Of a stretch of DNA of 42,823 nucleotides, positions 1,930 to 42,823 are shown piece by piece (within the stretch, counting starts at the first letter, position 1; each line of letters starts with the position of its first letter). The stretch is from Candidatus Krumholzibacteriota bacterium (GTDB taxonomy: Bacteria; Krumholzibacteriota; Krumholzibacteriia; LZORAL124-64-63), in contig JBDLKA010000022.1 in NCBI GenBank assembly GCA_039714075.1, forward strand, positions 1 to 42,823. Reading direction: 5' to 3'. The notes beneath the pieces were generated by a model. The model made no database searches. It was not told where the DNA came from and was given only the letters and a program-made list of their open reading frames with translations. Made by a program: the position numbers and the translations under genes.

Positions 1930-1976
1930 TTCACCCGCTGGAATATTCGTGAAGATGGTTGATCAAAGGTGGACGC

Positions 1977-2891: not shown

Positions 2892-2937
2892 CCGAAGGAT
2901 TGGTCGGGTTTCAGGCAAGGAGCCGTTTAATAATTCC

Positions 2938-4746: not shown

Positions 4747-4841
4747 GAACCGGCTCCCCGGGTGTCTTTTCTGGGTGCGTTTTGGTTGATTATTGAAATC
4801 CATAACCAATTGAAAAATTTGCTGTTTAGCTGACTTTTTTC

Positions 4842-4870
4842 TTGCTGTTTTCGCTGTTTGTTCGTATATT
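4842..4870 (+). promoter_or_regulatory. Putative sigma70-type promoter for the HNH gene
   Basis: TTGCTG (4842-4847), 17 nt, TATATT (4865-4870), within an AT-rich tract. Confidence 0.55.
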
Positions 4871-4875
4871 GATTG

Positions 4876-4904
4876 TACCTCCCATGCACCCAACCCTGGA
4901 GGTA
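4876..4904 (+). promoter_or_regulatory. Hairpin sequestering the Shine-Dalgarno sequence in the HNH gene leader
   Basis: TACCTCC (4876-4882) is the exact reverse complement of GGAGGTA (4898-4904), which contains the SD just upstream of ATG 4909. Confidence 0.55.
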
Positions 4905-4908
4905 TATC

Positions 4909-5937
4909 ATGTCCGCTGTTTCCTACGTTCCCGACCAATCCGCCGCTCACGTTCATTCTTCTCTGCGCCGTTCGTTGAAGGCCATGGAGCTGGCCCGGCA
5001 GTGCGCCGTTCTATGGTTCGCCGAGGTCATGCGGCGAAGGTTGTATTGCGAGTTGGGCTATTCCTCCATCAACCAGTACGCCATGAAAGGTCTTGGGTTT
5101 TCCAAATCACGGACCGGTGATTTCATTCGGCTGGCCCGGCAGCTGGATGGCTTGCCGGCCGTGCGAGATGCCATGGTTTCCGGTGAGCTGGGATACACCA
5201 AGGCGCGGGAAATCGTCGGGGTGGCCACGCCCGAAACCCAGGACGAGTGGTTGCAGGCCGCCAAAAAACCACGGCAGGAATTGGTTCGCGAAGTGAAGAG
5301 AGTCAAGCGGGCAGCCCAGGTCGATCCCGGCCAAGGTGAACTTTTACCGGCTGCCCCCACCGTGGTCGCACCGAAGGAACTGCCGGTCCGTTTCCAGATG
5401 GATCTGACCCCCGAACAGGAAGCCCGCCGGTCCGCTTTGGTCGAGCGGCTCCACAAATTGGGCGGCGTCCCCAACGACAAGGCCGAGTTGGTGTTGGAAG
5501 CCCTGGCTTCTTTGGTGGAAACGAAGGAAAAGGCCCCCCGGGGGGCCCTCGCCGGGCGGCCGCCGGTACAAATCCATGTTCACGAAGAAGCCGGCAAAAT
5601 GACAGTGGAAACTGACGTCGGAAAGCGCGAGCTAAGCCGGGCCGAGGCCGAACGAATGAAATGCGACGCGGCCGTCTGTCGTAAAGGAGGCCATAATACA
5701 ACAACCATCCCTCCACGCGTGCGTCGCGAGGTTCTGGCACGCGACCGACACCGCTGCCAGGCTCCCGGGTGCGGAAGGACCCGGTTTCTCGAAGTTCACC
5801 ACAAGGTGCCGCGCTCTGGCGGAGGCGGCAACAGCCGGGAAAACCTGGTGACCCTCTGTGGTTCATGCCATCGGCTTTGGCATGAACGGGGCGCCGGCGC
5901 CATTCCGGATGCCCCGAACAAGGCTCTCATCGGCTAG
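4909..5937 (+). CDS. HNH endonuclease with DUF222/13E12-like helical N-terminal region
   Basis: C-terminal RDRHRCQAPGC...EVHHKVPRSGGGGNSRENLVTLCGSCHRLWHE (Zn-binding HNH); N-terminal LGYSSINQYA...GELGYTKAREI resembles DUF222-type proteins; strong GGAGGT SD. Confidence 0.85.
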   Translation: MSAVSYVPDQSAAHVHSSLRRSLKAMELARQCAVLWFAEVMRRRLYCELGYSSINQYAMKGLGFSKSRTGDFIRLARQLDGLPAVRDAMVSGELGYTKAREIVGVATPETQDEWLQAAKKPRQELVREVKRVKRAAQVDPGQGELLPAAPTVVAPKELPVRFQMDLTPEQEARRSALVERLHKLGGVPNDKAELVLEALASLVETKEKAPRGALAGRPPVQIHVHEEAGKMTVETDVGKRELSRAEAERMKCDAAVCRKGGHNTTTIPPRVRREVLARDRHRCQAPGCGRTRFLEVHHKVPRSGGGGNSRENLVTLCGSCHRLWHERGAGAIPDAPNKALIG

Positions 5938-5974
5938 ATGCCGGGGACCGATTCCACCACGGCCTGGGGCAGCC

Positions 5975-22936: not shown

Positions 22937-22957
22937 ATTGCGGAGGGAAGGGTGGAA

Positions 22958-24673: not shown

Positions 24674-24782
24674 GGCAAAACCCTCCACTTAAGACGCTTT
24701 AGAATGATGGATGGTGAAAATGGAAGGCAAAAAACAATGGTATAAACTCGGCAAACCCCACCTTCACCCCAAACCTGCGGAA

Positions 24783-27441: not shown

Positions 27442-27568
27442 GATTCGACCGTCCCGGGGATTAACCAGTTGGAATGGTTCCAGCCATGATGCTCGCCACC
27501 ACGGACTCCCTTTCCATCGCCTTCCCACTGTGGCACTTGAGACGAATCAAGTAAACACCGCATGGTAC

Positions 27569-27635: not shown

Positions 27636-28322
27636 TTACCGGTACAGGGACTTCAGGCTGCCGAAGGAGGTCTCTTCGGTGGCCACGGTGCAGATATCCA
27701 CGTTGGTCATACCGGGAGTATCCAGGGCACAGAAGGTGAAATCTCCCGTTTTCCAGAAAGTGCCGCACCTGATGGCATGGGCGGGCACATAGGTGCCGTC
27801 CGGGCCCAGAGTGGTGTCGCAGTAGGTCAAATCACCCGAACCGACGGTCTCGATCAGGGCCAGGCAGTCGACGACTCCGGTCCAGATGGGATTGTCGATC
27901 ACGCCGTCGTCATCGGTATCGATGTCGTCGGCAACCGCACCGGTGAACCCGGTCACCAGCAGGTGGGTCACGTTGTCACTGTTCTCGAAGTTGAGGGCAT
28001 TGCTGAGAACGGTCAGATCAACGGCATCCTCGCAAGCGACAACCCAGAGATCCTCGGTTACCAGGAAATAACCGTCGGCGCCGATCACGTAACCGGTCAG
28101 GTCGAGGGCGGTTTCCACGGTACCGCTGCCGGTCGCGCCATCGCCGATGACCACGTAGGTCAGGCCGTCGAGGCTTTCACCGGGACTGCCGTAAAGTTCG
28201 AAGTACTCGTTGTAATCCGAGCCACCCTGGTCGATCCGAATTTCATTGATCACGGCAGCGCCGGCGATCATCGGAACGAGAGCGAGACAGAAGACGGTGA
28301 ACATCACCTTAGAAAATCGCAT
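27636..28322 (-). CDS. Secreted lamin-tail-domain-like protein with C-terminal 'SFGSLKSLYR' motif
   Basis: Signal peptide; VINEIRID...EYFELYG (LTD-like), DTPG end motif, tail TVATEETSFGSLKSLYR; SD AGGAGG. Confidence 0.8.
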   Translation of the reverse strand: MRFSKVMFTVFCLALVPMIAGAAVINEIRIDQGGSDYNEYFELYGSPGESLDGLTYVVIGDGATGSGTVETALDLTGYVIGADGYFLVTEDLWVVACEDAVDLTVLSNALNFENSDNVTHLLVTGFTGAVADDIDTDDDGVIDNPIWTGVVDCLALIETVGSGDLTYCDTTLGPDGTYVPAHAIRCGTFWKTGDFTFCALDTPGMTNVDICTVATEETSFGSLKSLYR

Positions 28323-28605: not shown

Positions 28606-29451
28606 CTATCCCTTGACACTTCCCAAAGTCAGCCCCGAAACCAGATATCTGTTCAACACCAGGAACAGAATAACCACGGGTACGCACACCAGAAGCGACC
28701 CGGCGGCATAGTTGGCCCACTCGGTCTGGTAGGTGGTGAACAATGATTCCAGACCCAGGGGCAGCGTCATGAGTTCCTTGCTGGCCAGCATCACCCTGGC
28801 GACCATGAATTCACTCCACCCGGTCATGAAGGAAAAAAGCGCCGTGATCACCAGGGCCGGAGTACTCAACGGAAGGGTCACGCGGAAATAGGCCTGGAAG
28901 GGGGAACAGCCGTCGATCAGGGCGGCTTCGTTCAGAGCGACGGGAATGGTGTCGTAGTAGCCCTTCATGGTCCAGACGCAGAAGGGCAGCGCGGTGGCTA
29001 CGTATGCGACCATCACTCCGCCCAGGGTGTCGACCAGGTGCAGTTTGCGCATCATCAAATACAGGGGCAGCAGCAGCATGGTGGCGGGAAACATCTGGGT
29101 CATGAGGATGCCCTGCAAAGCCGCGCCGCGGCCGGTGAAGCGGTAGCGCGACAAAGCGAACCCCCCGAGGCTGGCCAGGGCCACGCCGATCAGGGCCGTC
29201 CCCAGCGACACGATCAGCGAGTTCCGCAGCCACAGGAAAAACGGTTTTTCGGTGAACATGATCCGGTAGGCATCGAAGGTGTGATTGTCCGGAATGAGTT
29301 TCAGATCGGTGCTGTAGAGCTGGTCCCCCGGGCGCAGGCTGATGCCCACGATCTGCAGGATGGGGAAAATGGAAAACAGCACGAACAACCAAACCAGCGC
29401 GTGCACCCACACGTGATTCCAGACACGGCCTGCCGTCAACCTCCGGGCCAT
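28606..29451 (-). CDS. Carbohydrate ABC transporter permease (MalG-like)
   Basis: Real start MARRLTAG at 29451 (TGATG overlap); WLRNSL, TQMFP, MKGYYDTIP..LNEAALIDG (EAA loop), SGLTLGSVKG. Confidence 0.92.
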   Translation of the reverse strand: MARRLTAGRVWNHVWVHALVWLFVLFSIFPILQIVGISLRPGDQLYSTDLKLIPDNHTFDAYRIMFTEKPFFLWLRNSLIVSLGTALIGVALASLGGFALSRYRFTGRGAALQGILMTQMFPATMLLLPLYLMMRKLHLVDTLGGVMVAYVATALPFCVWTMKGYYDTIPVALNEAALIDGCSPFQAYFRVTLPLSTPALVITALFSFMTGWSEFMVARVMLASKELMTLPLGLESLFTTYQTEWANYAAGSLLVCVPVVILFLVLNRYLVSGLTLGSVKG

Positions 29452-30329
29452 CAGTACGCCTCCTCGCGGGCCGCGCGGTTGTAGCCCTTCACGATGAACA
29501 CCAGGACCAGGAAGATGAACACGCTGAAGGCGGCCGCGTAACCGTAGCGGTAGTACTGGAAGGCCGCCTTGTAGACATAGGTGACCAGGATATGCGTCTT
29601 GTCCGCGGGCAGGCCCTGGTCGGTGACCAGCCAGATCACGTTCAGGTTGTTGAAGGTCCAGATCGTGCCCAGCACCAACGCCGGCAGCAGCACCGGTTTG
29701 AGCATGGGCAGGGTGATGCTGAAGAACCGGCGCACCGGCCCCGCGCCGTCGATGCGGGCGGCCTCGTACAGTTCCTGCGGAATACTCTGGAGCCCGCCCA
29801 GGGCTATCACCATGATGAACGGGAACCCGAGCCAGATGTTCGTGATCACCGGCGCCATGAAGGCCCAGAATTCGCTGGTGAACCAGGGCACGGCCTCGAT
29901 GCCGATCTTGCCCAGCATCAGGTTGACGGCCCCGTACTCCACGTTGAACATGCCGCGCCAGGTCAGCGCCGAGATGTACTGCGGCATGGCCCAGGGCAGG
30001 ATCAGCAGCGCGCGATAGATGTTGCGGCCGGGCAGCCTGCGGTTCAGCAGCAGGGCCGCCCCCAGTCCCAGCGTGAAATGGAACACCAGGTTGACGGCCG
30101 TCCAGGCGATGGTCTTGCCGAAGATGCGGTAGAAATCCTCTTCGCCGAACAGCCGGAAATAATGGGTCAGGCCGATCAGTTCCGGATTGCGGAAGTGGAA
30201 CATGTTCCAGTTGGTCAGGGATATGTAGACGTTGAAGAAGAAGGGATACGCCACCACGCCCAGCAACACCAGTGCGCTGGGCAGCAGGAACCAGAAAGCC
30301 AGACGGTTTTCGGTCCGGCCCGCGCTCAT
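29451..30329 (-). CDS. Carbohydrate ABC transporter permease (MalF-like)
   Basis: YRALLILPWAMP, NIWLGFPF, LQSIPQELYEAARIDGA, TFNNLNVI. Confidence 0.92.
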   Translation of the reverse strand: MSAGRTENRLAFWFLLPSALVLLGVVAYPFFFNVYISLTNWNMFHFRNPELIGLTHYFRLFGEEDFYRIFGKTIAWTAVNLVFHFTLGLGAALLLNRRLPGRNIYRALLILPWAMPQYISALTWRGMFNVEYGAVNLMLGKIGIEAVPWFTSEFWAFMAPVITNIWLGFPFIMVIALGGLQSIPQELYEAARIDGAGPVRRFFSITLPMLKPVLLPALVLGTIWTFNNLNVIWLVTDQGLPADKTHILVTYVYKAAFQYYRYGYAAAFSVFIFLVLVFIVKGYNRAAREEAY

Positions 30330-31591
30330 TCACGCATCCTTTCGATCTCGGTGGTGGCTTTGATCTGCATGGCCCGGGCAGCGTCCTCGGGGCTGAGTTC
30401 CCCGTTCATCACGCTCTGGTAGCTGGGGCGCATGGCGTCCCATACGGCGCGCATCTCCGGAACGATGGGCATGACGCGGCCCTTGGCGATCTGCTCGCGG
30501 CTGGCCAATAAAAACGGGTCATTCTGGATCTCTTCGACCTGCCCGGCGGCCCGATCCCCCGGCTGTACGCTCAGACCCTTGGCCAAGGCGATCTGAACCT
30601 CGGTTCCGGTCAGCCACTTCAGTAGTGCGGCCGTGCATCCACTGGTGGCCGGATCCATGTAACGATTTATGGAATAACACTTTGCAGACACCGCCGGTGT
30701 CGGCCACAAACCCGTGGCGGAAACTTTGGGAATGCTGGCCAACTGGATGTCGATCCCCGCGTCGCGGTAGCCTTCCCAGGACCAGGGCCCGTTGATGATA
30801 TAGGCCGCGCGGCCCTCCTTGAAAATGGTGTCGGCCAGAGGGTAATCGCATTCCAGGGGCACGACCTTCGCCTGTTTCAATCCGCTCAGGAAATCGAGGG
30901 CCCCCACCATGGCCGGCGTATCCAGGGTAGGCCAGGATTCATCGTCCATGACCCAACCGCCGAAGCCTCCCAGCCAGGGTACCAGCCAGAAGGGTTCCAG
31001 AAGGTTGAACACCAATCCGTATTGATCCGGCTTGCCGTTGCCGTCGGTGTCCACGGTAAGTTCCTGGAGCTGACGGAACCAGGCGTCCGTGTCCGTGGGG
31101 ATGCTATCAACCAGGGCCATGTTGCCAACCAGGGTCAGGTGATTGCCCACGTGATCGGGCAGGCCGTAGACATGGCCATTCAATACAGGAAGTGATTCGG
31201 GCTGGAACCGGTCGATTTCCTCCTGGGGAAGCAATTCCTCCACGGGCATGAGAAGACCCATGACGGACCAGGGCCCCAGCTTGTCGGACGGCCCGTACAC
31301 CAGATTGGGTCCCCCGTAGGCCAGGGCGGCGGTCTGGAACTGGGTCTGGAGGTCTTCGGTGCGGTAATGGACCCGCTCTATATTAAAGGATGCGAATTCG
31401 GGGTGGTCCCGGCGGAACTGCTCGACGTGCAGGTCGAACAGTTCCTGCTCCTTGGGATCCATCTGTTCCCAGACGATGACGCTGCGGCTGCGGTCCACAC
31501 GGCCGCAGGACAGCAAGCCGGGGATGAGACCCAGAACGATGAAAATGAAAACCGTATTACGAATGAATTTTTGGTCCCGCAGTTTTTTCAT
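30326..31591 (-). CDS. Sugar ABC transporter substrate-binding lipoprotein (maltose/maltodextrin MalE-like)
   Basis: Lipobox LLS-C; GPNLVYGPSD, FKEGRAAYIINGPWSW, MPIVPEMRAVW (MalE-like); start probably ATG 31591. Confidence 0.87.
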   Translation of the reverse strand: MKKLRDQKFIRNTVFIFIVLGLIPGLLSCGRVDRSRSVIVWEQMDPKEQELFDLHVEQFRRDHPEFASFNIERVHYRTEDLQTQFQTAALAYGGPNLVYGPSDKLGPWSVMGLLMPVEELLPQEEIDRFQPESLPVLNGHVYGLPDHVGNHLTLVGNMALVDSIPTDTDAWFRQLQELTVDTDGNGKPDQYGLVFNLLEPFWLVPWLGGFGGWVMDDESWPTLDTPAMVGALDFLSGLKQAKVVPLECDYPLADTIFKEGRAAYIINGPWSWEGYRDAGIDIQLASIPKVSATGLWPTPAVSAKCYSINRYMDPATSGCTAALLKWLTGTEVQIALAKGLSVQPGDRAAGQVEEIQNDPFLLASREQIAKGRVMPIVPEMRAVWDAMRPSYQSVMNGELSPEDAARAMQIKATTEIERMRE

Positions 31592-31715
31592 GGCCGGGAC
31601 CATACACCGATTTCCAGGTTGAAACAACATTTCACCAATTCCCCCTGTTAAAAAAGAGGATTTCAGTGGAATTCGATTGAATCAGCGGTCTCCGATGCGG
31701 TAGATTCCCCCAACT

Positions 31716-34700
31716 ATGAAAATCGTTCCACGCCTCTCTCACGTCCGCGCTTTTCATCTTCCGGTCGTGATCATTATTCTGCTGCTGGCCGCACTCGCGG
31801 TGGCCGCTCCTTTCCATCATCCCACCATTGACGGGACCATCACGGCTGACGGGACCGATTGGGATCCCGCAGACCTGGTTGTCGATGACAGTGGGGATGA
31901 CGATCTGACGCGTTCCTCCAACGTTCGTCGGCTGTGGTGCACCTGGGACCAGGACAGCCTCTATGTGGCGGTCACCTACCAGGATCTGGGAGCCAATGAG
32001 GCCCTGTCGGTTTTTCTGGATCTGGATCGGGGCGTCGGTCCCGACAACGCCGGCATCCTCGACAATTTCCCGGGCAACTTCCTGATGCCCGAGGGGCATC
32101 GCTTCGAGCTGGTCCTGGGACGGCTGCCCTCCGAGGGCCTTGGCGGTAATCCACCCCTGAGCCGGCTGGTCACCGACGACAACGGCACGACCGTCAGCCT
32201 GGCCTCGCAAGTCAGCGCCGCCCAGGGAATGAGTTCGGAGACCAAAACCGCCGCCGGGGAGAACGCGCGCCTTCAGTTCTGGCTCAATGCGGAGATCGCC
32301 CTGCCCTGGTCCGCCATCTATCCCGACCAGGGAACCACGGTACCTCCCCATGCCATCATCAAGGCCGTGGCAGTGTCAACCGTCGCTCACGCCGACAGCA
32401 ACGGCATAGATAGCGCCCCCGACAACGAGGGGCTGGACCGCAGCGGGCCGGACCCTGTGCTGCTGGCGAACATGGCCCCCTCGGTGATCGACGCCGACGG
32501 GGACGGCCAGCCGGACCCGGCCGACGCCACCATCAGCGGAACCGTGACCCTGCCCCAGGATCCCGGTTCGACCACGGTGACGGTGCAGGCGGAACTCATC
32601 GATTTCGCGGGGAACCGGGATCCCGGCGCACCCCTGTCTGTCGTCACGACCGGGGAAGGCATTCGCACCTGGACCCTGGCCCGGTTGCCGGCGGGCACCT
32701 ACCGGATAACCACCAGTTCCCTCGGCTATTTTCAAGACCAAACCACCGTCCAGGTCACGCAGAGCCAAGTGGTCACCGGCATCGACCGTGGATTGATTAA
32801 AGCCACGACAATCAGCGGTTTCATCGGTTTCGAGTCCGGCCCCGGCGGAAAGGGGACCGTGACCCTGGAGAAAGCCGACGGCACACATGTGGAAACCCAG
32901 GAGTTCGACTTCAGCCAGACGGGAGAAAGCTACACCTTCTTTCCGGATGAAGGCGGAGACTTCGTCGTCAGGGTCGATGTCGAGACCTACATGCCGGACG
33001 AAGCCGTGGTGTCCGTCGCCACGGGCGAGGAACAGGCCAACGTCGACTTCACAATGGTCCGCCAGACCGAAATCAGCGGCGCCGTATCCTTCCTGGAGGG
33101 TCCGGGCCAACCGGGAACCATCTACTTCCTGGACAGTGAAGGCAACGAGTTGGACTTCGTGGGCTTCCCCCTCAACGGCGGCCCCTTCCAGTTCTTCACC
33201 CCCGTCGGCGGCAGCTTCACCCTGTCAGCCAACACCAACGCCGGCGAGGTCATCGGGATTTACGCCCCCCTCGCAATGGATGTCGATGTCACGCTGGGCC
33301 AGGACATCACCGGCCTCGCCGTGGAAATGAGTCTGGCTGCCTTCGTGACCGCATCAATCTCCTTCGAAGGCCCGCCCGCCGAGGGTCGTCTGACCCTCAC
33401 CGACAACAACACCGGCGTGGTCATGCTGGACGGAGCGATCAACCCCGTGGAAGGGGACAGTGCCAGCATCTATCTCGGGCCCAGTGAATACCGGCTCGAT
33501 CTGGAAGCCCTCGGGTACTCTCCCCGGACCATCGTCTTCAACGTCACCGAGGCGGACACCTCTCTCGGAGTCCTGCTGCTTTCCGCGGTGCGGGCGACCC
33601 ATCTGGAAATCATCAACGACGACGGTGAAACCCAGCCCGAGATCCGAGCCACGGCCTACGACCCGGCCGACGATCCCTGGACCAGCAGCCGGGTCCTGCT
33701 GGCCGCCCGGGATGACGAGGGCCGTGACGACCTTTACGACCTGGACGGCAGCCTCCAGGGTTTCCGTCTGTCCGCCCTCAAGATGGACGACCTCTCCCCC
33801 CCCAACGGGAATCCCGTATTCTACCCGACCGACCAGGAAGCCCCGGTCGACAGCGTGGTGAGTTTCGTTGATGGGCGCGCCGAATTCTGGATGAGCGACA
33901 CCGCCGTCGAGGTCCTGCGGGTGTATCTGGCCCAGCCGAACAAGGCGCCTATTGCCGGGCGCATCGTAGTGGCTTTCCTTGATCCGGAACCCCGGACCGT
34001 TCTTTTGACGGCCGACCGGGACACCCTGGTCGCCGACGACATGGAAACCATCACCGTCACCGCCCAACTCTTCGACACGGCCGAAAATCTCAGTCTCATC
34101 CCGGATATCCCGGTGACCTTCTCGGTGGCTTCGGGAAGTTCGGGCAAAGGCCAGTTCGTCATTCCCACCGTTCTGACAAATGCCGAGGGGACAGCCTCCG
34201 CCTCCATTTCCGCCACCGGCGCCGGCCTTTTGCAGATCACCGCCACGGTGGTCATCAACAACCGGGTCCTTGATGTCGTGGCCTATGATCTGGATAGCGG
34301 AGAAACCGTTCTGCCTCTCTACTCGGTGGCAGGTCCGACTTCGGGCTGGAAATTGTCCCTGCCCAGTAATCTGAGCGATCTCGTGACCCCCGTCGCGGTG
34401 AATGCCCAGACCGTGGACGATTTCGGCAATCCCACAGCGGACCAGGGACGCACCATCTCGTTATCCGCTGACCCGGCCGGCCTGGGAACTTTCGACCCAA
34501 TCATCGCCACTTCCAATGAGTTCGGACGGGCGTCCAGCACCTATACCCCCTCCGGAACAGCCGGACTTGTCTTCATCACCGGGACCAGCGGCGACCTCGC
34601 CGGTGCCGAAACAGGCCTGCGCCTGCGGGACCTGGTCGTGATCCCCGACCCGGTCTGGTACGAAGAGCCCCTGACCCGGCAGACTTTCGACAAGACCGAC

Positions 34701-37700
34701 CTGACCGCCCTGGTCGTCGCCAACACTCCCGACGAACTTCTCCTGGAGATCCCTTTCCAGTCCGACTGGAACGGCCTCCAACTGCACATTGCCTTCGAAA
34801 CCAATTCCGATGCCGCGGGCGCTTCAGGGGACCCCTTCGGAATGCCGGTCAACTACGGGCACGCCTTGAAACCGGACTATGTCCTGACAACCAAGTACTC
34901 GGCCAATGACTACGGGGACTTCCGTCGCTGGAACACCGGTTCTTCGAGCTGGGATTTCTGGAATCCGACCACCGGCGGCTACGAGGGCAGCGGCAACATC
35001 CAGGGTGAATGGGTGACCAAGGAGGCCGACCGCGTCCTCATCCGGATTCCCAAGGAACCCTTTGGCGGCACCTTCCCGCCCACCATTCTGCTGGAAGCCT
35101 ATCTGACCCAGGAGGACGGGGAAAAGCGTTCGGCCTTCGATTCGGCCCCCCAGGATTCAACCCTGAACCTGACTTTCGACTACGAGGATCCCCAGCCGGG
35201 CGACTGGGATTCGACCAAGGGCCCGGTCACTCTTGAAGCATGGGGGCGCGAATATGTGGTCCGGACCGACTTTCCTGTTCCTCCGGCGGTGGAAAACGTC
35301 AGCGTAACCCCTGCGGAAATGGATGCGGGTGCAACGCTGATCCTGGAGGCCTTGATCACCGAATCCGTCAACGGCATCGGGGATGTCGTGGCGGACCTGA
35401 GCGCCATGGGAGGCAGTTCGCTGGCCCGCATGTACGACGACGGGGATGCCGGGCACGGCGATTCGGTGGCCGGCGACGGGGTGTACAGCCTGCTGACCCT
35501 GGTGCCCATCTCGAACCCCGGCGGGGCCCAGGACCTGATCGTCAACGCCTTCGACGGTGAGAACATCTGGGCCAATACCGGTATCGCCACCATCAACGTG
35601 ACTGCCCTGGTCACGCCCATCATCGTGGCCACCGACCCGGTCGGCGACGACCATGGTCCGAACCAGCCGGGGGTCCGGCGGAAATTCTACACCTACCCCA
35701 CCAACATCGCCTTCGTGCAGGGTGGTTTCGACCTGACCGGGCTGACAGTTTTCGAAACCAAAGCCAACGTCGGCGGCGAGTTGATCGACATGATCGCCTT
35801 CCAGGTGTCGATGGGGGACTTCCCCGACCCGGCTGATCCGGGCACGGCCAACTGGAACCCGCTCTACGCGGACCTGAACATCACCAAGATCGATATCCTG
35901 ATCGATAACGCCCCCGGGGGCTCCATCTCCTCGCTGCCCTGGAGGCAGGCCGCCTTCCAGCCCTGGGACGCCTGGGACTGGGCCATCATCATGGACGGTT
36001 GGTACAAGGCCCTGATTCCTTCGCTGGGCCAGAACACGGTTGATTCCTGGCGCGACAACGCCCTGCGCAACGACAAGAATATTCTGCTCCTGAGCGATCC
36101 TGACCTGGATACGGTCACGGCGCTTGTTTCCAAGTCCGCCCTGGGCGACCCCACCCCCGAGGACATCGCCAAATGGGACATCGCCGTCTGCATGGCCAGT
36201 CATGATTTCGGAGGAGAAGAGGTCCTCGGGGGCGTCCGCTGGGTGGAGGAAGCCCGTAGCGAGTGGCAATTCGGGGGCGGTCAGAGCGGCGACCGTGACA
36301 GCAACTACATGGACCTGCTTCTGGTGGCCGGGGCCGGTACGGTGGCTGAACCGGAGGAATTCAAGACCCAGGAAGAAATCCTGGATTACGACTCGCCCGA
36401 CGCCTTGGCCCGTATGGAACGTGGAATGACCCCGGTGGCCATCGAGATGACCCCTTTCAAGGACAGCGGCCCTCCGGTCATCGATCCGGGCGGCGATGGT
36501 TCCGTCGTCACCAAAGTCGCCCCCATCCTGGACACCCCGTTGGCCATGGCGATCAACATCAGCGACGACAACCGGGTCGCCGAGGCCACCTTCCGGTATC
36601 GCTCCACCGGATTCGAAGAGGAAGGCTGGCAACGTGAAGTCCCCATGGGGTTCCTGGGCAGAGACGCCTGGGTTGTGGACATCCTGCCCAGTTGGCTCGA
36701 TTCAAACCTGGTCTACTCGCCCATCGACAGCACCCGGTACCTGGAATTCGAGGTCGAAGCCTCCGATCCGGGCGATCCGAACGCCGATCCGCCCGTGGCC
36801 CCCAAGACTTCAATCTCTCCGGTGACCACCCTTCAGATCGAAAAAAATGCCATCTGCCGCCCTCGTGACAGTGATTTGGACTTCGGGGATCTGCTGTTGA
36901 TTCAGGTCGAGGGCGCCCTGTTGAACGTGCCCGACAAGCTGCGCCGGGATCTGGTCCGCCGGCACATCGCCGAAGTCTGGACCGGTGGACAGGTCAACCC
37001 CGACACGATGGGCGCGGACATCGAACTTCAATGGGACGTGTGCAATATCGCGGAAGAGATCAGGAACGCCCCCAGAATTCCCGACGGTCGACCCATCGGT
37101 GTATTCAGGCAGGTATACATTGCCACTTCCGACACCCTGGGAGGCTACCTCGATTACGGAGGCCCGCTACCCGGCAACGCACAGCTTTCCCTGCACTACC
37201 CCCAGGAGTGGGTACCGGAGGGCATCGACGAAAACCTTATCGCCCTTTACCAGTACAACTCTGAATCGGACCGCTGGATCAAGGTCGGCGGAAACGTCAC
37301 CCCCACGGGCAACAACGTGACCGCGACCATCAACCAGGTGGGAACCTTCGGTCTTTTCGTGACCGAGGCCAACTCGCACGACTCCGGCGAGGTCATCTCG
37401 GGCATCACCATTTCGCCCAATCCCTTCTCCCCCAACGGGGACGGGCTCTATGACGACACCAACATCTCCTTCTTCCTGACCCAGGAGGCGACGATCACCG
37501 TCGAGGTCTACAACATCTACGGGGACCGCAAGAACATCCTGGCGCAGACCTTCCCCTTCTCCGGCAGCGATCTCACCGACCCCGTCCCCCGGCGCGTGCC
37601 GGGGTTGATCTGGGACGGCACCGAATCCAACGGGAAACCCGTCCCCTATGGAATCTATATTCTGAGGGTCCTGGCCACCTACAATTTCGGCGGAGGAACC

Positions 37701-37742
37701 CGGACCGTCCGCAGCAACCATCCCGTGGCGGTGATCAGATGA
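31716..37742 (+). CDS. 2008-aa secreted multidomain protein: DOMON-like modules, beta-sandwich/Ig repeats, choice-of-anchor-X-like motif, glucodextranase-C-like DOMON, FlgD-Ig/T9SS-like C-terminal domain
   Basis: Signal peptide; LWCTWDQDSLYVAV (DOMON-like); repeated ISG.V...G.Y beta-sandwiches; Big_1-like TNAEGTASA and SNEFGRASSTY; MYDDGDAGHGDSVAGDGVYS; DPVGDDHGP...YTYPTN...FDLT; C-terminal SPNPFSPNGDG...WDGT...GIYILRV...VAVIR. Confidence 0.8.
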   Translation: MKIVPRLSHVRAFHLPVVIIILLLAALAVAAPFHHPTIDGTITADGTDWDPADLVVDDSGDDDLTRSSNVRRLWCTWDQDSLYVAVTYQDLGANEALSVFLDLDRGVGPDNAGILDNFPGNFLMPEGHRFELVLGRLPSEGLGGNPPLSRLVTDDNGTTVSLASQVSAAQGMSSETKTAAGENARLQFWLNAEIALPWSAIYPDQGTTVPPHAIIKAVAVSTVAHADSNGIDSAPDNEGLDRSGPDPVLLANMAPSVIDADGDGQPDPADATISGTVTLPQDPGSTTVTVQAELIDFAGNRDPGAPLSVVTTGEGIRTWTLARLPAGTYRITTSSLGYFQDQTTVQVTQSQVVTGIDRGLIKATTISGFIGFESGPGGKGTVTLEKADGTHVETQEFDFSQTGESYTFFPDEGGDFVVRVDVETYMPDEAVVSVATGEEQANVDFTMVRQTEISGAVSFLEGPGQPGTIYFLDSEGNELDFVGFPLNGGPFQFFTPVGGSFTLSANTNAGEVIGIYAPLAMDVDVTLGQDITGLAVEMSLAAFVTASISFEGPPAEGRLTLTDNNTGVVMLDGAINPVEGDSASIYLGPSEYRLDLEALGYSPRTIVFNVTEADTSLGVLLLSAVRATHLEIINDDGETQPEIRATAYDPADDPWTSSRVLLAARDDEGRDDLYDLDGSLQGFRLSALKMDDLSPPNGNPVFYPTDQEAPVDSVVSFVDGRAEFWMSDTAVEVLRVYLAQPNKAPIAGRIVVAFLDPEPRTVLLTADRDTLVADDMETITVTAQLFDTAENLSLIPDIPVTFSVASGSSGKGQFVIPTVLTNAEGTASASISATGAGLLQITATVVINNRVLDVVAYDLDSGETVLPLYSVAGPTSGWKLSLPSNLSDLVTPVAVNAQTVDDFGNPTADQGRTISLSADPAGLGTFDPIIATSNEFGRASSTYTPSGTAGLVFITGTSGDLAGAETGLRLRDLVVIPDPVWYEEPLTRQTFDKTDLTALVVANTPDELLLEIPFQSDWNGLQLHIAFETNSDAAGASGDPFGMPVNYGHALKPDYVLTTKYSANDYGDFRRWNTGSSSWDFWNPTTGGYEGSGNIQGEWVTKEADRVLIRIPKEPFGGTFPPTILLEAYLTQEDGEKRSAFDSAPQDSTLNLTFDYEDPQPGDWDSTKGPVTLEAWGREYVVRTDFPVPPAVENVSVTPAEMDAGATLILEALITESVNGIGDVVADLSAMGGSSLARMYDDGDAGHGDSVAGDGVYSLLTLVPISNPGGAQDLIVNAFDGENIWANTGIATINVTALVTPIIVATDPVGDDHGPNQPGVRRKFYTYPTNIAFVQGGFDLTGLTVFETKANVGGELIDMIAFQVSMGDFPDPADPGTANWNPLYADLNITKIDILIDNAPGGSISSLPWRQAAFQPWDAWDWAIIMDGWYKALIPSLGQNTVDSWRDNALRNDKNILLLSDPDLDTVTALVSKSALGDPTPEDIAKWDIAVCMASHDFGGEEVLGGVRWVEEARSEWQFGGGQSGDRDSNYMDLLLVAGAGTVAEPEEFKTQEEILDYDSPDALARMERGMTPVAIEMTPFKDSGPPVIDPGGDGSVVTKVAPILDTPLAMAINISDDNRVAEATFRYRSTGFEEEGWQREVPMGFLGRDAWVVDILPSWLDSNLVYSPIDSTRYLEFEVEASDPGDPNADPPVAPKTSISPVTTLQIEKNAICRPRDSDLDFGDLLLIQVEGALLNVPDKLRRDLVRRHIAEVWTGGQVNPDTMGADIELQWDVCNIAEEIRNAPRIPDGRPIGVFRQVYIATSDTLGGYLDYGGPLPGNAQLSLHYPQEWVPEGIDENLIALYQYNSESDRWIKVGGNVTPTGNNVTATINQVGTFGLFVTEANSHDSGEVISGITISPNPFSPNGDGLYDDTNISFFLTQEATITVEVYNIYGDRKNILAQTFPFSGSDLTDPVPRRVPGLIWDGTESNGKPVPYGIYILRVLATYNFGGGTRTVRSNHPVAVIR

Positions 37743-38632
37743 CCGGTCGCAGACACATCCTCCGCTCGGTGGCGGGATTTGTCCTGCTGGCGCTGCTGGC
37801 CGGGGTGGCTCCCACCGCCCGCGCCGATTTCCGCCATGCCCGCATGGGCGCCCGGCCCCGGGCCCTGGGTTCGGCCTTCGTATCCCTGGCCGACGATGCC
37901 AACGCCGCCTACTGGAATCCGGCGGGCCTGGTGCGCGACAACAGGGCCTCCCTGATGCTGACCAATTCCTGGATGTACGGCATCTCCGACCTGACCAACA
38001 CCTATCTGGCGGTGGACCTGCCCCGCCTGGGCGATTTCCACTTCGGCGCCAGCTGGGTGCGCCTGGGGATCAAGGATCTCTATTACGAGGACACCATCAA
38101 TCTGGCCGTGGCCGGCAACATGCCGTTTTTGGAAGGACTGTCCCTGGGTTTGACCGGCAAGATGTTCCTTTTGGCCGCACCGGGTTATGAAAAATACAAC
38201 GACCCCCACTACAACGGCGGGGACCAGGGATTCTCCTTCGATCTGGGCGCATTGTACGACAGCGGGGGCCCCTGGACCCTCGGGGCCACGGTCTACAATC
38301 TGGTGGAGACCAAGCTCCAACTTCTCGAAAGCACCTCCGACCCCGATCCGATCTTCACCGAATGGGCTGCTGGCGGCAGTTACCTCTTCCGTGAAACGCT
38401 TCTGGTGACCGCGGACTTCAGGAACCGGGAAGGCGAATTCAACAACATCATTCTGCACGGGGGCGCCGAAATCTGGTTTTACGACGCGCTGGTCCTGCGC
38501 TCGGGTCTGGACAAGGGACTGGTGACCCTGGGGGCCGGCCTGCAGGACGATCATTGGCAGGCCGATTTCACGCTCAAAACGGAAAAAGCGCTGGGCAACG
38601 TCTACATGCTTTCTTTCACGGTGAGGAAGTAG
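37739..38632 (+). CDS. PorV/PorQ-like (FadL-related) outer-membrane beta-barrel
   Basis: Signal peptide then MGARPRALGSAFVSLADDANAAYWNPAGL, followed by amphipathic beta-strands; ATGA overlap with the upstream gene. Confidence 0.8.
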   Translation: MTGRRHILRSVAGFVLLALLAGVAPTARADFRHARMGARPRALGSAFVSLADDANAAYWNPAGLVRDNRASLMLTNSWMYGISDLTNTYLAVDLPRLGDFHFGASWVRLGIKDLYYEDTINLAVAGNMPFLEGLSLGLTGKMFLLAAPGYEKYNDPHYNGGDQGFSFDLGALYDSGGPWTLGATVYNLVETKLQLLESTSDPDPIFTEWAAGGSYLFRETLLVTADFRNREGEFNNIILHGGAEIWFYDALVLRSGLDKGLVTLGAGLQDDHWQADFTLKTEKALGNVYMLSFTVRK

Positions 38633-38640
38633 GGGTGCGG

Positions 38641-40245
38641 ATGATACGGAAGACATCCCGAATCGGCCTCGTCCTGATGGTTTGCTCCCTTGCGCTCCTG
38701 TTCACTTGTCCGGCCTTGGCAGCCAACAAGGTCGAAGGTTTCTACGAGGCCGAAGTCAGCGCCCAGAAGGAGAACGGCAAGTGGCTGTTCGGCCCTCCGG
38801 GCGGCAACGGCATGCCCAAACATTATGCCGAACTCAAATTCTGGTCCTGGCCCAACGACAAATTCGAGGTCTTCGCCAAGGTACGTGCCGAATCAAATCG
38901 GGAGGACGACCGTTCCCCCGCCGTGGACTACTACGCGCCCCCCTGGTTCAGCGGTGAAGGCCACATCAAGCTGCGGCAGAACAAATACGAGGCCTATCTT
39001 TTCTACCGGCAAAACCGGTTCTACATCAACGACCAGCCCCTGCTGCGCCTGGTCGGCGACGGAAACCTGAAAAACGATGATTGGGGTCCCAAGGCCCAGG
39101 GCGTGAGGTTCGATTTCTGGGAGACCGACCTGGGAATCAAGAACATGGGCGGGACGTTCATCGTCAGCGACGACGGCGGCACCTTCAATTTCAATGAATC
39201 ACCCGTCCCAAACGGGGCCGACAGCAAGATCTTCCGACTCAGGCACAAGGCCTGGGACGGGCGTATCGAATCGGCTGCCATGTACCTCCGGAAGGACTGG
39301 ACCGACACCTCCCAGGACGACATATGGACAGACCTTCTGTCCCTGATGCACAACAACGTCTATTCCTTCGATGTGGCCTTCACACCACGCAATCTGATCA
39401 ATACCGGCCTGCGCCTGGGCCCCATCAACCTGGAACAATCGCGCTGGACCACCGAAATGGCCTGGAGCCAGCGACCCTACCATGAGTTCATCTTCGGGGA
39501 ATCGCGTCACCGCGCGAGGGCGATTGCGGTCGAAGAGCGTGATATCCACATCGGTGATTTTACCATCCACTCCTGGTACAACGACTTCGGTGAGGACTTC
39601 CGCAGCTACGTCTCCAACCGGTTCGAAGAGGGCGGCGAATACAACAAGATCCAGAAGCACGCCGAGCTGATCTGGTTGGTTCCACGCAAGTCCGTAACCA
39701 CCAAACTCATCTGGGATTCCCAACGCCAGCGGACCCTAGACGAGGAAGGCGGAGGGCTGCGGCCTTCCGAGGAGTGGTACGGCGAGATCTACATGGAGTT
39801 CATCAATGGGTTCAAGGCCCGCTTCGCCTACAAGAACTGGCACGGGTACGATAAGGATTCGGCCATCAGCGACTTCCGGACGTATCCCGACTGGTTCGGG
39901 GAGGTTTCGGTGGAGAATTTCCTGGCCAAGATCCGCCTGCAGGGCCGCATCCACGACGCAGGAACCTTCCGTCAGGTAACCATCTACGGTTTCGATATGA
40001 ACGTGAACCTGACCGAGCGGCTCAAGGGGTACCTGCGGGCCATGAACGTCAACGAGGAAACCGAAGCCCGGCACACGATCTTCGCCCAGCTCAAGTACGA
40101 CATCGGCTGGGGCGCGGAGTTCTATTTCGAATACGGCGACGCGGGCCAGTCGGACAATCTTGTCTATACGGACTGGTTCGTTAACGAAGGAAGCGATTCC
40201 AACCTGACCGACCGGTTCAAGGTGTTGGTCAAGGCCTGGTTCTGA
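38641..40245 (+). CDS. Putative outer-membrane beta-barrel protein
   Basis: Signal peptide ending ALA; very aromatic-rich alternating strands; C-terminal FKVLVKAWF (BAM-type terminal Phe); start ATG 38641. Confidence 0.72.
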   Translation: MIRKTSRIGLVLMVCSLALLFTCPALAANKVEGFYEAEVSAQKENGKWLFGPPGGNGMPKHYAELKFWSWPNDKFEVFAKVRAESNREDDRSPAVDYYAPPWFSGEGHIKLRQNKYEAYLFYRQNRFYINDQPLLRLVGDGNLKNDDWGPKAQGVRFDFWETDLGIKNMGGTFIVSDDGGTFNFNESPVPNGADSKIFRLRHKAWDGRIESAAMYLRKDWTDTSQDDIWTDLLSLMHNNVYSFDVAFTPRNLINTGLRLGPINLEQSRWTTEMAWSQRPYHEFIFGESRHRARAIAVEERDIHIGDFTIHSWYNDFGEDFRSYVSNRFEEGGEYNKIQKHAELIWLVPRKSVTTKLIWDSQRQRTLDEEGGGLRPSEEWYGEIYMEFINGFKARFAYKNWHGYDKDSAISDFRTYPDWFGEVSVENFLAKIRLQGRIHDAGTFRQVTIYGFDMNVNLTERLKGYLRAMNVNEETEARHTIFAQLKYDIGWGAEFYFEYGDAGQSDNLVYTDWFVNEGSDSNLTDRFKVLVKAWF

Positions 40246-40269
40246 TTCATTGCTGGTAGGGAGCTGATC

Positions 40270-42747
40270 ATGTTTGCGAAAGTATCACGAGTCCTGGTTC
40301 TGACGGTGGCAATTGCAGCCGTTCTGCTGACCACCGGTCCTCCGGGCGCGGCGCTTGCGGCGGCTCCAGAAAAAGGCGAAGACGGCATCGTGTTCTCCTA
40401 CCACGCCCCAAAGGCCCAGGCTGTGTTTCTGGCCGGCGACTTCAACAACTGGAATGCCCAGGACCTGGCCATGGTCCGCCAGGATTCGGGCGACTGGACC
40501 CTTACGATTGCCCTCGACTCCGGATCCTATGAATACAAGTTCATTGCCGACGGCAATTGGTTGGAAGACCCCGACAATCCCGAAAAGAAATCCGATCCGT
40601 TCGGTGGCTCCAATTCGGTCGTCACCGTCGGCAGTGACGGCGCCGTTGTCGCGGCCGCCGGTGCGGTCGCTCCGGTGGCCACCGGTGAAAAGACCGACGC
40701 CGCCGTACCCGATGATTTTTCCGTGGGCGCGCCCCGTGCCGTCGATGGCGGGATTCTTTTCACCTACCGTGATCCCGGTGTGGGAACCGTCAACCTGGCC
40801 GGATCCTTCAACGGCTGGAACGCCGACGATATTCCCCTGACGAATGACGGCAAGGGCAACTGGGCCGTGGTACATTCGCTCGATTCGGGCGAGCACGAAT
40901 ACAAATTCGTGGTCGATGGCGCCTGGTTCGCCGATCCGGAAAACCCGGACACCAAGGCCGACCCCTACGGTGGCGCCAATTCCCTGGTGATCGTTGACGA
41001 CGGCGGCCAACTCATCGCCGCGCCGGAAACCGCGGACGGCGATGGCGACGGCCACAAGCCGAATACGAATCTCAACGCCCGCCTGTATCTGGGTGGCCGG
41101 TACCTTACCCGTTTCGAATTCGCCAAGAACGTGGAGACCCAGGTTGGGGACACCGCCATGTTTGATCCCCGTTACCGCCTGCAGCGGCCCAGCCAGAGCG
41201 TGGACCTGAATTTCGAAGCCGAAGTAAGTGATATCGCCGCGACCTTCATGCGGATCCGGTTGGACTCGGACCAGAACATCATCCAGAACAACATCGCCGG
41301 ATTCCTGGACGAGGCCAACCTGACCATCGAACCGAGTAATTTCAAACTGAAGGCCTATTGGAACCAGGAGGTCTATACCGGAGAAGACCTGCTGCTGTTG
41401 GGCGGCAACACCGACCTGCCCGGAACCATTTTCCACGACCACCTGGATTACGGCAAGGGCAGCGCGGGCGCCCTGTTCGAGGCCGATCCGGTCGGGGTCA
41501 AGACGGTGCTGTTTTTCGCCAACGTGCACAATCACGACTATTACGGCGACCCGAAACTGTTCGACAACACCGGTGAAGACAAGGTGGGCCTGCGGCTGTC
41601 CCGGAAGTTCGGCCCGGTGGAAATCGGGACCCCGGTGTGGTTGGAGCGCTCGGTTGTCGAATTGGATTTGGGCGATATTGTCGGTTTGGCCGACACCGGC
41701 ATCCCCGCCCTGAACGAATATCTGAAAACAGACGACGACAGTAATATGTTCAATACCGAAACCAGGAATTTCAACTTCGGTCTGGATCTGCGGTTCGACC
41801 TGACCGACAAGCTGATGTTCGGCGCCCAAGGCAACTACGTCGACATCAAGCAGGCGTTTGTGGCCGGAAACCACGCCGGCCTGGACAACAACTGGGCCCA
41901 GATCGACGTGCCCTTCCTGGAGCGGGACCGCCGCATGTACATGGGCCAGGTCGATTTCCGGCCGACCGAGAACATGGAATTCAGCCTCAAGCACATCGTG
42001 GCGGACATGAATGGAGCGGATCCGGACCAGCGAAGAGTGGCCTTCGAGTTCCGCGACCAGAATCCGACCAACAACAGAATCTATTTCACAATCGAGGACA
42101 GCCCTGCCGCCGTTGAGGCCGATTCGACGGACCTGACCTGGGACTGGCACAAGGATGACCTGGACCTGGGTGTCTGGCTGCGCCGGGTGTCCCGCGACTG
42201 GGACTACGAATCGTCGGATCTGACCGTTCCCGAAGACGAATCCCTGACCAGCCGAACCGAGGAAATCTACAAGGCCTCGCTCATGGCGGGCCTGGGAAAC
42301 CCCGGGGATTTCCTGGGACACGGTGAAATCGAATTCGCCTACGTTACGGCCGATGCCGGTGTGGCCGCGAAAAAAATCGACACCTATGAGATGATCTTCC
42401 GCTACGATCGCGACCTGTCCCGCAACACGGGCCTTATCGCGGATCTGCGTTTCATCCAGTATGATTTCGAGGGGAACGATTCCAACGGTGAGTTGATTGC
42501 CGACAGCCCCGACTACTTCGCCCCCTTTGCCGGGTTCCGGTACACACCGATCAGGAAGCTGGAACTGGTTCTCGCCTACGGTGTGGACCCGCTCGAATAC
42601 TCGATCGATTATGAGGGTCGACATCTGGGACGCTGGTGGTTCCGCCAGAACTACCTGTTCAATAATTCGGACGCGACCCAGTTGGACGCCGAGAACTATC
42701 TGTCCAAGGCGGATGTGTTCACCCTGCGGGCCCAACTGCTCTTCTAG
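40270..42747 (+). CDS. Tandem CBM48/AMPK-type glycogen-binding domains fused to a putative outer-membrane beta-barrel
   Basis: Signal peptide; two repeats LAG[D/S]FN[N/G]W...[Y/H]EYKF..DG.W..DP.NP....DP[F/Y]GG.NS (about 40384-40630 and 40750-40995); beta-strand-rich remainder ending FTLRAQLLF. Confidence 0.8.
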   Translation: MFAKVSRVLVLTVAIAAVLLTTGPPGAALAAAPEKGEDGIVFSYHAPKAQAVFLAGDFNNWNAQDLAMVRQDSGDWTLTIALDSGSYEYKFIADGNWLEDPDNPEKKSDPFGGSNSVVTVGSDGAVVAAAGAVAPVATGEKTDAAVPDDFSVGAPRAVDGGILFTYRDPGVGTVNLAGSFNGWNADDIPLTNDGKGNWAVVHSLDSGEHEYKFVVDGAWFADPENPDTKADPYGGANSLVIVDDGGQLIAAPETADGDGDGHKPNTNLNARLYLGGRYLTRFEFAKNVETQVGDTAMFDPRYRLQRPSQSVDLNFEAEVSDIAATFMRIRLDSDQNIIQNNIAGFLDEANLTIEPSNFKLKAYWNQEVYTGEDLLLLGGNTDLPGTIFHDHLDYGKGSAGALFEADPVGVKTVLFFANVHNHDYYGDPKLFDNTGEDKVGLRLSRKFGPVEIGTPVWLERSVVELDLGDIVGLADTGIPALNEYLKTDDDSNMFNTETRNFNFGLDLRFDLTDKLMFGAQGNYVDIKQAFVAGNHAGLDNNWAQIDVPFLERDRRMYMGQVDFRPTENMEFSLKHIVADMNGADPDQRRVAFEFRDQNPTNNRIYFTIEDSPAAVEADSTDLTWDWHKDDLDLGVWLRRVSRDWDYESSDLTVPEDESLTSRTEEIYKASLMAGLGNPGDFLGHGEIEFAYVTADAGVAAKKIDTYEMIFRYDRDLSRNTGLIADLRFIQYDFEGNDSNGELIADSPDYFAPFAGFRYTPIRKLELVLAYGVDPLEYSIDYEGRHLGRWWFRQNYLFNNSDATQLDAENYLSKADVFTLRAQLLF

Positions 42748-42759
42748 AAAGGAACGGAA

Positions 42760-42823
42760 ATGCTGAAAAAATCAGGAATTTTCGTTCTGGGCACGCTTCT
42801 CCTTGCCGGTGCCATGGTATCCG
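42760..42823 (+). CDS. Start of another exported protein (truncated by the window edge)
   Basis: SD AAAGGA then MLKKSGIFVLGTLLLAGAMVS..., a signal-peptide pattern starting 12 nt after the previous stop. Confidence 0.6.
   Translation, partial: MLKKSGIFVLGTLLLAGAMVS

Follow-up and report, generated by a model that had tools for sequence, protein, structure and literature searches.

How might a bacterium in whose genome neither SusD nor LamB was found bring starch-like polymers through its outer membrane? This question is raised by a locus at the end of a 42,823-nt stretch of DNA from a Candidatus Krumholzibacteriota bacterium (assembly GCA_039714075.1, contig JBDLKA010000022.1), here called the window. 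The window is the complete contig C22 of a metagenome-assembled genome (MAG) of 260 contigs, G000, which is 92% complete and 4.3% contaminated. In this locus an operon for a maltodextrin-type ATP-binding cassette (ABC) importer lies divergent from a run of genes encoding a giant secreted protein (big2008), a PorV-like barrel (porV297) and two much larger barrels, bar534 (barrel 1) and cbmbar825 (the CBM48-barrel), the latter fused to two CBM48 modules. On balance we think it probable, from gene content and context, that the locus represents the outer- and inner-membrane core of a system for the utilization of alpha-glucan (starch, glycogen or maltodextrin). An earlier note made from the DNA letters had proposed an alpha-glucan capture and uptake architecture without SusC/SusD, and as a genomic inference this proposal is supported by gene content, fold predictions and conserved linkage.

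Organization of the locus

The genes of the locus, with their positions in the window, are as follows.

28606..29448, minus strand: malG, MalG-like ABC permease, 280 aa (Pfam BPD_transp_1; best NCBIfam match MalG)
29451..30329, minus strand: malF, MalF-like ABC permease, 292 aa (Pfam BPD_transp_1; best NCBIfam match MalF)
30326..31630, minus strand: malE, MalE-like solute-binding protein (Pfam SBP_bac_8 and SBP_bac_1; best NCBIfam match MalE, next GanS)
31716..37742, plus strand: big2008, giant non-catalytic secreted protein, 2008 aa (Pfam Glucodextran_C, Big_1 and a CHU_C/FlgD_ig-like C-terminus)
37739..38632, plus strand: porV297, outer-membrane barrel of the PorV/PorQ/PorP superfamily, 297 aa (NCBIfam PorV_fam; profile of its orthologues matches PorV in the PDB)
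38641..40245, plus strand: bar534, 534 aa, signal peptide and predicted barrel of about 24 strands (AlphaFold2, Foldseek, VIA-align)
40270..42747, plus strand: cbmbar825, 825 aa, two CBM48 modules and predicted barrel of about 22-24 strands (Pfam, AlphaFold2, VIA-align)
42760..42823, plus strand: CBM48 lipoprotein gene, first 21 codons, cut by the contig end (reads MLKKSGIFVL..., as does the orthologue in genome G007)

The genes big2008 and porV297 overlap in an ATGA junction, and the following intergenic gaps measure 8, 24 and 12 nt. These gaps, the overlap, the gene coordinates and the divergent mal operon all proved exact on re-reading. Between malE and big2008 no sigma-70-like promoter and no terminator were detected. 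No RNA run was listed as containing the locus. Pfam also returned the three signals that had first pointed to alpha-glucans, namely Glucodextran_C, two CBM48 modules and the parts of a MalEFG-type ABC importer. The remainder of the window consists of unrelated housekeeping genes, and 26 further open reading frames (ORFs) of the window had no Pfam match to a glycoside hydrolase, TonB receptor, SusD or LamB.

Two large predicted outer-membrane barrels

The AlphaFold2 model of bar534, built from an alignment of 35 homologues (predicted local distance difference test, pLDDT, 84.1; predicted template modelling score, pTM, 0.76), displays a signal helix and, behind it, about 24 long strands, and has no globular N-terminal plug. 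With VIA-align, the model superposed best on the 24-strand usher pores PapC (2vqi_A, Z 16.5, root-mean-square deviation (rmsd) 6.0, 370 aligned residues) and FimD (3ohn_B, Z 16.5, rmsd 5.5, 370 aligned residues). All fold matches from Foldseek and VIA-align were outer-membrane barrels, TonB-dependent and LptD barrels coming after the ushers. A total of 127 homologues of bar534 were found, and the 120 among the matches listed were all without a Pfam domain; a Pfam scan of 35 family members likewise returned no credible family. The profile of the family recovered only 109 clusters from 1.84 billion representative proteins, one of them labelled Cloacimonadota, and the protein atlas contained only unnamed clusters for it (Eiseniibacteriota, Cloacimonadota). 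Language-model features had suggested DUF6029 for bar534; this assignment was left unconfirmed by Pfam, which gave no such match on the 35 members.

The protein cbmbar825 starts with a signal peptide, which is followed by CBM48 modules at residues ~34-120 and 156-242; a linker modelled with low confidence (252-269) then leads into a barrel (271-825) that ends in Phe. Both AMPK1_CBM (100 bits, cut-off 26.8) and CBM_48 (82.4 bits, cut-off 22.4) matched in two copies each, while residues ~260-825 had no match to a Pfam family. The CBM48 part aligned with the carbohydrate-binding module of AMPK beta-1 in the PDB (E 1e-10), including the FNGW (FNxW), EYKFxVDGxW and late Asn motifs. The FNxW, YKFxVDGxW and late Asn positions are invariant across 39 homologues of cbmbar825, and we take them to be the sugar-binding residues of AMPK-beta-type modules. 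In the AlphaFold2 model (39 homologues, pLDDT 82.8) the two modules fold as beta-sandwiches in front of a barrel of about 22-24 strands. The modules superposed closely on the CBM48 of an amylase (4aef_B, Z 13.7, rmsd 1.9). The barrel was nearest to MtrB (6r2q_B, Z 16.2, rmsd 5.9, 399 aligned residues), with FyuA (Z 16.1) and other TonB-dependent barrels (Z ~15-16) close behind, and a partial alignment with maltoporin (Z 14.9, 305 residues). Among 82 homologues nearly all carry the fused CBM48.

No Plug or TonB_dep_Rec domain was found by Pfam in either protein at E <= 0.01, and neither model shows a globular plug at the N-terminus, where cbmbar825 has its CBM48 modules. The structures that the two barrels matched best are barrels of 22-26 strands. 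The two models (pLDDT as above) and the Foldseek and VIA-align searches agree with the earlier designation of these proteins as outer-membrane barrels, and they support bar534 and cbmbar825 as predicted large plug-less outer-membrane beta-barrels. Because neither has a Plug domain or a TonB box, any transport through them would be TonB-independent. The idea that the two barrels are paralogues was dropped, since hhalign gave a probability of 3.3% and no homology between them was detectable.

The giant protein and its PorV-like barrel

The giant protein big2008 carries a signal peptide, Ig-like/CarboxypepD_reg repeats (the CarboxypepD_reg matches in Pfam being weak), Big_1, and a Glucodextran_C module at residues 1303-1560 (86 bits). 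None of its 86 homologues has a glycoside-hydrolase domain, and several of the more distant ones have a precomputed PF13585 or PF13860 assignment. The source annotation names these homologues glucodextranase DOMON-like domain-containing proteins. No sequence relative of big2008 was found in the PDB, and the protein atlas search gave no usable match. CHU_C is a signal domain of type-B cargo of type IX secretion systems (T9SS). When the last 117 residues of big2008 (~1892-2008) were scanned alone, CHU_C reached 26.8 bits (cut-off 27, E 5.6e-6), and FlgD_ig matched the C-terminus with 17.7 bits. The description of big2008 as a T9SS-like surface protein depends on this borderline CHU_C match.

The neighbouring porV297 matched PorV_fam of NCBIfam with 63.6 bits (E 2.3e-17, cut-off 90) and PorP_fam with 23 bits (cut-off 90.55). 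A profile made from 13 syntenic orthologues matched PorV of Flavobacterium johnsoniae (6h3i_F, E 2.8e-5), and it matched the FadL-type proteins TodX/CymD only weakly. The protein belongs to a distinct PorV subfamily that scores below the cut-off and is found at the same position in four other genomes (G015, G031, G011 and G008). In two papers, such PorP/SprF-like barrels are described as binding and anchoring type-B cargo with a C-terminal domain (CTD) (PMC9143113; PMC12618676). By this analogy the giant and its PorV-like partner form a pair that is known in kind and resembles T9SS type-B cargo with its PorP/SprF-like anchor.

The ABC importer

The three importer genes of the window scored below the NCBIfam equivalog cut-offs, with 102.7 bits against 291 for MalE, 170 against 392 for MalF and 182 against 261 for MalG. 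The MalG orthologues of the syntenic loci are 65-94% identical to the MalG of the window. MalE carries an LLSC lipobox in our reading of the sequence and is probably a lipoprotein; its true start may be an internal MKKL... located 14 codons downstream. An ATPase of the MalK type (ABC_tran, OB_MalK and TOBE_2) is encoded on contig C112 of the same genome and in the loci of the relatives.

Synteny and distribution

By tblastn, the order giant, PorV-like barrel, barrel 1 and CBM48-barrel beside malEFG was identified in the genomes G007, G015, G023 and G011. The same four-gene order was present in G031, where no mal genes were matched in the stretch read. The loci of the relatives contain GH13, CBM20/CBM48, MalE/F/G(K), and GDE or glucokinase genes within about 10-20 kb. 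Seven more genomes distributed over five other families of the class keep the order, and they also contain the lipoprotein, malE/F/G(/K) and a large GH13 gene inside the 20-30 kb read, save for the truncated G057, whose contig stops at barrel 1 so that the CBM48-barrel and the lipoprotein lie beyond reading there.

Barrel 1 was detected in 61 of 151 genomes sampled from the phylum, including 51 of the 118 genomes of high quality and representing 27 of 69 genera. The CBM48-barrel, judged by its barrel part, was detected in 54 of the 151, and each of these 54 also has barrel 1.

A scan with one genome per species yielded 64 loci, 26 of which (L081-L106) formed a distant set. From this set the 22 loci of at least 9 kb were used; four (L083, L088, L100, L102) were too short, and two others (L107, L108) were left out as partial matches. 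All 22 contain the PorV-like barrel, barrel 1 and the CBM48-barrel in this order. A homologue of the giant lies upstream in 20, the remaining two beginning at a contig end, and the CBM48 lipoprotein stands behind the CBM48-barrel in 21, the last locus ending before it. In 17 of the 22 loci the module continues into MalF-, MalG- and MalE-like ABC genes, and the other five stop at a contig end. Eight of the 22 loci are titled Candidatus Eisenbacteria; within the flanks read, these showed no separate GH13 catalytic gene and no CBM20 gene. The synteny across Krumholzibacteriota and the Eisenbacteria-titled loci indicates that conservation of the module extends over at least two candidate phyla and includes its tie to a sugar importer. 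In every locus examined, the homologues of both barrels were linked to alpha-glucan genes, as the earlier note would have them be.

Eight other loci with barrel-1 homologues 47-67% identical to bar534 (L051, L054, L056, L058, L069, L071, L076 and L078) bear conflicting labels, namely Fibrobacteraceae, Fibrobacter sp., Gemmatimonas sp., Thermoplasmata archaeon and Patescibacteria group. These labels probably reflect mislabelled or chimeric MAG bins and not a real spread of the gene.

Genes downstream of the barrels

Because the window is an entire contig, its continuation had to be read from the relatives and from contig C112. The operon had been expected to run past the window end, and it does so: the cut gene is the start of a CBM48 lipoprotein gene, and the continuation is seen in the relatives. 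The orthologue in G007, which belongs to the same genus, begins with the same residues; it is 141 aa long, carries the lipobox ATGC and has the fold of CBM48. A CBM48 lipoprotein gene directly follows the CBM48-barrel also in G015, G023, G011 and G031. The next genes in the relatives encode one or two CBM20 proteins, a GH13 protein of ~1000-1150 aa with three CBM48 modules, a GH13 protein of ~630 aa and MalK. Some relatives further carry genes for amylo-alpha-1,6-glucosidase (GDE_C), glucokinase and glucose-6-phosphate dehydrogenase (G6PD). In G000 itself, contig C112 encodes two CBM20 proteins, a GH13 protein of 1013 aa, a lipoprotein GH13 of 642 aa and MalK. The orientation of C112 fits a position after C22, the two being apparently separated by a short gap that would hold the rest of the lipoprotein gene. 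A susC/susD pair immediately downstream, which could have accounted for uptake, was not present; in the relatives this place is taken by the CBM48 lipoprotein, the CBM20 proteins and the GH13 enzymes.

The catabolic character of these neighbours bears on whether the module could work in the opposite direction, exporting or organizing an alpha-glucan made by the cell (a capsule or a glycogen-like polymer of the periplasm), in which case the barrels would act as secretins for polysaccharide. AlgE, Wzi and PelB are among the structural matches (Z 11-14) and CBM48 is also found in branching enzymes, both of which speak for such a role. Against it, the neighbours point to import and breakdown (a MalEFGK-type importer, amylo-alpha-1,6-glucosidase, glucokinase and G6PD), and in the loci read Pfam detected neither a glycosyltransferase nor Wza/Wzc nor a synthase. 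We hold this alternative to be very improbable.

The GH13 of 1013 aa and the CBM20 proteins each carry a signal peptide but no recognised T9SS CTD. Both CBM20 proteins of C112 (187-1338 and 1598-2728, minus strand) and a 228-aa secreted protein beside malG (27636-28322, minus strand), which no Pfam or NCBIfam model matched, terminate in ...[WF]G.[IVL]K..[YF]R-stop. This tail (in short WGxxKxxYR) was found on 58 ORFs genome-wide, often behind a Cys and a V-x-V-E-E stretch, and it looks like a short C-terminal sorting tag used throughout the lineage.

These secreted proteins raise the alternative that barrel 1 and/or the CBM48-barrel move the GH13 (with its three CBM48 modules) and CBM20 proteins of the locus to the cell surface. 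Their lack of a recognised CTD, the tag of the CBM20 proteins, to which no machinery has been assigned, and the closeness of barrel 1 to the translocation pores PapC and FimD are in its favour. It is weakened by the lack of an Usher family match and of a chaperone gene in Pfam searches, and by numbers that do not agree, the tag occurring on 58 ORFs while barrel 1 has a single copy and went undetected in 90 of the 151 sampled genomes. The Eisenbacteria loci, moreover, keep the module beside ABC genes with no separate GH13 or CBM20 gene in the flanks read. Protein export by these barrels is in our judgement improbable.

Other uptake systems and type IX secretion in the genome

A set of five genomes, comprising G000 and four relatives (92-100% complete), was searched for known uptake systems. 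SusD_RagB and LamB (PF02264) were detected in none of the five, while the controls, B. thetaiotaomicron for the former and E. coli for the latter, were positive. In the window, a Pfam scan of 34 ORFs (8 plus 26) identified no Plug, TonB_dep_Rec, SusD or LamB, in agreement with the earlier statement that a TonB-dependent receptor, a SusD-like lipoprotein and LamB are missing from it. Elsewhere G000 encodes eight receptors with a Plug domain; their genes all lie outside C22 and C112, and no GH13 gene occurs on the same contig as any of them.

These eight TonB-dependent receptors are one reason to consider that the locus is a display scaffold only, in which the barrels and the PorV-like protein anchor the carbohydrate-binding modules and the giant (an adhesion comparable to an 'amylosome'), and dextrins enter by general porins or by the eight receptors. 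The structural matches can also be read in this way, since MtrB, the nearest structure to the barrel of cbmbar825, sheathes protein and conducts no solutes, the usher pores closest to barrel 1 pass protein, and no plug or constriction was identifiable in either barrel. Two different giant barrels would nevertheless be a costly anchor, given that a lipid anchor or a barrel of the PorV kind is enough and that the locus uses both. Furthermore, in two phyla the barrels occur in strict linkage with an ABC importer, and no contig carries both a TonB-dependent receptor gene and a GH13 gene. A scaffold without uptake appears unlikely to us.

Parts of the machinery with which big2008 could be exported were identified as well. 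SprA, PorU and PorV_fam were above their cut-offs in all five genomes, and PorU adjoined a canonical PorV. G000 has 12 PorV_fam matches, of which seven exceed the cut-off, and a first look with the CTD part of the PorU model gave 142 candidates. These counts suggest that the T9SS-type secretome of this genome is very large and has many specialised PorV-like barrels. One further arrangement was seen on contig C41 of G000 (1-6999), which encodes a TonB-dependent receptor (>1023 aa, truncated at the contig start), then a protein of 973 aa whose C-terminal end is of the T9SS type, and then a PorV-family barrel of 328 aa. As judged from its genes, this trio follows the same logic of a large CTD protein with a private PorV-like barrel, here on a classical receptor. 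BLASTP found no similarity between the 973-aa protein and big2008.

A model for alpha-glucan uptake

None of the alternatives discussed above accounts for the link with the ABC importer as well as uptake does. In the uptake model, the giant protein would be exported through the SprA-type T9SS translocon of the genome and held on the surface by its own PorV/PorP-like barrel, in the manner in which PorP/SprF-like proteins hold type-B CTD cargo in Bacteroidota. There it would capture glucan polymer, and the two large TonB-independent barrels would pass glucan chains or dextrins over the outer membrane. The CBM48 modules of the barrel and of the lipoprotein may bind the chain at the channel, possibly as a periplasmic ratchet, gate or plug. 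GH13 enzymes with CBM48 would trim the chain, and the putative lipoprotein MalE would pass the dextrins to MalFGK.

A bolder form of this model is that the five genes constitute an undescribed TonB-independent glycan translocon that occurs across several candidate phyla related to the FCB group, in which a PorV-held T9SS giant delivers alpha-glucan chains whole to one or two barrels of ~24 strands, with the CBM48 modules as gate and ratchet. Polysaccharide uptake would on this view have a third solution, next to specific porins and the SusCD/TonB transporters. We offer this form only tentatively and regard it as doubtful.

Several observations weigh against uptake as described here. With respect to the giant, the DOMON (Glucodextran_C) module taken alone is a weak alpha-glucan signal and not a proven binder. 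The sorting-domain match of big2008 is borderline and porV297 lies under its family cut-offs, which makes the assignment of both to a T9SS pair a qualified one. In G028 the giant had no tblastn match, and in G058 it was matched by its C-terminal domain only. Searches of the five genomes for GldL and GldM, the motor proteins of the T9SS, recovered neither, although their models passed the cut-off in no control genome either. Regarding the barrels, a plug-less barrel of 22-24 strands would be a very leaky pore, so that an occluding element must exist. In barrel proteins, a domain at the N-terminus normally lies in the periplasm. For this reason the CBM48 pair may not face outside, which weakens surface capture; if the usual topology applies, the pair would be periplasmic and would serve as a ratchet or docking site instead of a surface binder. 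As MalE, MalF and MalG score under the equivalog cut-offs, the sugar specificity of the importer leans on context. Finally, the module is patchy within the phylum, as the count of 61 among 151 sampled genomes indicates.

Other genes of the window

An AsmA/YhdP-like protein of 860 aa is encoded at 24946-27528 (minus strand) beside the tagged 228-aa protein. The same neighbour was present in G007, and the gene was undetected in the more distant loci. At 5858-8842, both strands contain long overlapping ORFs of 955-979 aa without a Pfam family. Overlapping ORFs of 536-576 aa without a Pfam family were also observed on both strands at 22952-24688, and the 576-aa ORF on the minus strand there has a weak match (E 2.9e-8) to the C-terminal region of a myxosortase-dependent M36 peptidase.

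Implications

The passage of polysaccharides over the outer membrane is largely unknown in diderm bacteria beyond Bacteroidota and Proteobacteria. The uncultured phyla concerned here are common in sediments, soils and wastewater. For them the module provides a testable candidate built on two new barrel families, which lack a model in both Pfam and NCBIfam and are annotated as 'hypothetical' or just 'glycogen-binding domain-containing'. The permanent fusion of a carbohydrate-binding module to a barrel and the apparent use of T9SS-type anchoring in nutrient uptake are further parts of it. If the barrels conduct glucan without TonB, the inference of carbohydrate uptake from metagenomes, for which SusCD counts are the current proxy, would change, and structural biology would gain a new class of large gated channels.

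Comparison with known systems

The Sus system of Bacteroides (SusC/SusD, SusE/F, SusG) shares with the present locus a clustered arrangement, glycan-binding proteins in the envelope, and GH13 enzymes with starch-binding modules. In both, a barrel of similar girth (SusC-type barrels matched with Z 11-15.5) is followed by a small lipoprotein gene, with sugar catabolism downstream. The differences are considerable. Here SusD was found in none of the five genomes, and the barrels have neither Plug nor TonB box. One barrel itself carries the binding modules, and in place of a lipoprotein a putative CTD protein with its own PorV-like barrel serves as the large surface subunit. The inner-membrane step of Sus is performed by a permease of the major facilitator superfamily, whereas an ABC importer is encoded here.

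The latter feature is shared with the maltose system of E. coli (LamB, MalE/MalFGK2, MalS), which has an ABC importer of the same MalE/F/G/K type. Passive, TonB-independent passage over the outer membrane, as in that system, is the most economical reading of our locus, and maltoporin aligns with part of cbmbar825, as noted above. The locus differs from the maltose system in that LamB was found in none of the five genomes, in predicted barrels of ~22-24 strands instead of 18, in having two different barrels, one of them with CBM48 modules, and in the giant surface protein that is part of the module.

Type-B cargo of the T9SS, such as SprB-SprF and PG1035-PorP, displays the same arrangement of a very large CTD protein gene with the gene of a PorV/PorP-superfamily barrel directly after it (overlapping here), and the host genome encodes SprA, PorU and PorV. 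In contrast to the known cases, the host does not belong to Bacteroidota, the CTD and the barrel are just under the curated cut-offs, and the pair is located inside a nutrient-uptake module and not in a motility or adhesin locus.

The ushers PapC/FimD and the barrel of the MtrB porin-cytochrome complex are the best structural matches in barrel size and shape (Z 16.5 and 16.2). With identities of 7-8% and no Usher or MtrB match in Pfam, this likeness is limited to the number of strands. Only the barrel of bar534 aligns with the ushers, and the usher plug, the N- and C-terminal usher domains, a chaperone and cytochrome genes were not present at the locus.

No description of the barrels or of the module was found in the open-access papers searched, and the terms CBM48, type IX and TonB-independent do not occur in a 2026 review (PMC13543919). 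The outer-membrane machinery belongs to none of SusCD, LamB, the TonB-dependent transporters or the ushers, while its carbohydrate-binding modules are members of CBM48. It is made up of two barrel families without a curated model, set in a locus that, as one for starch utilization, is known in kind.

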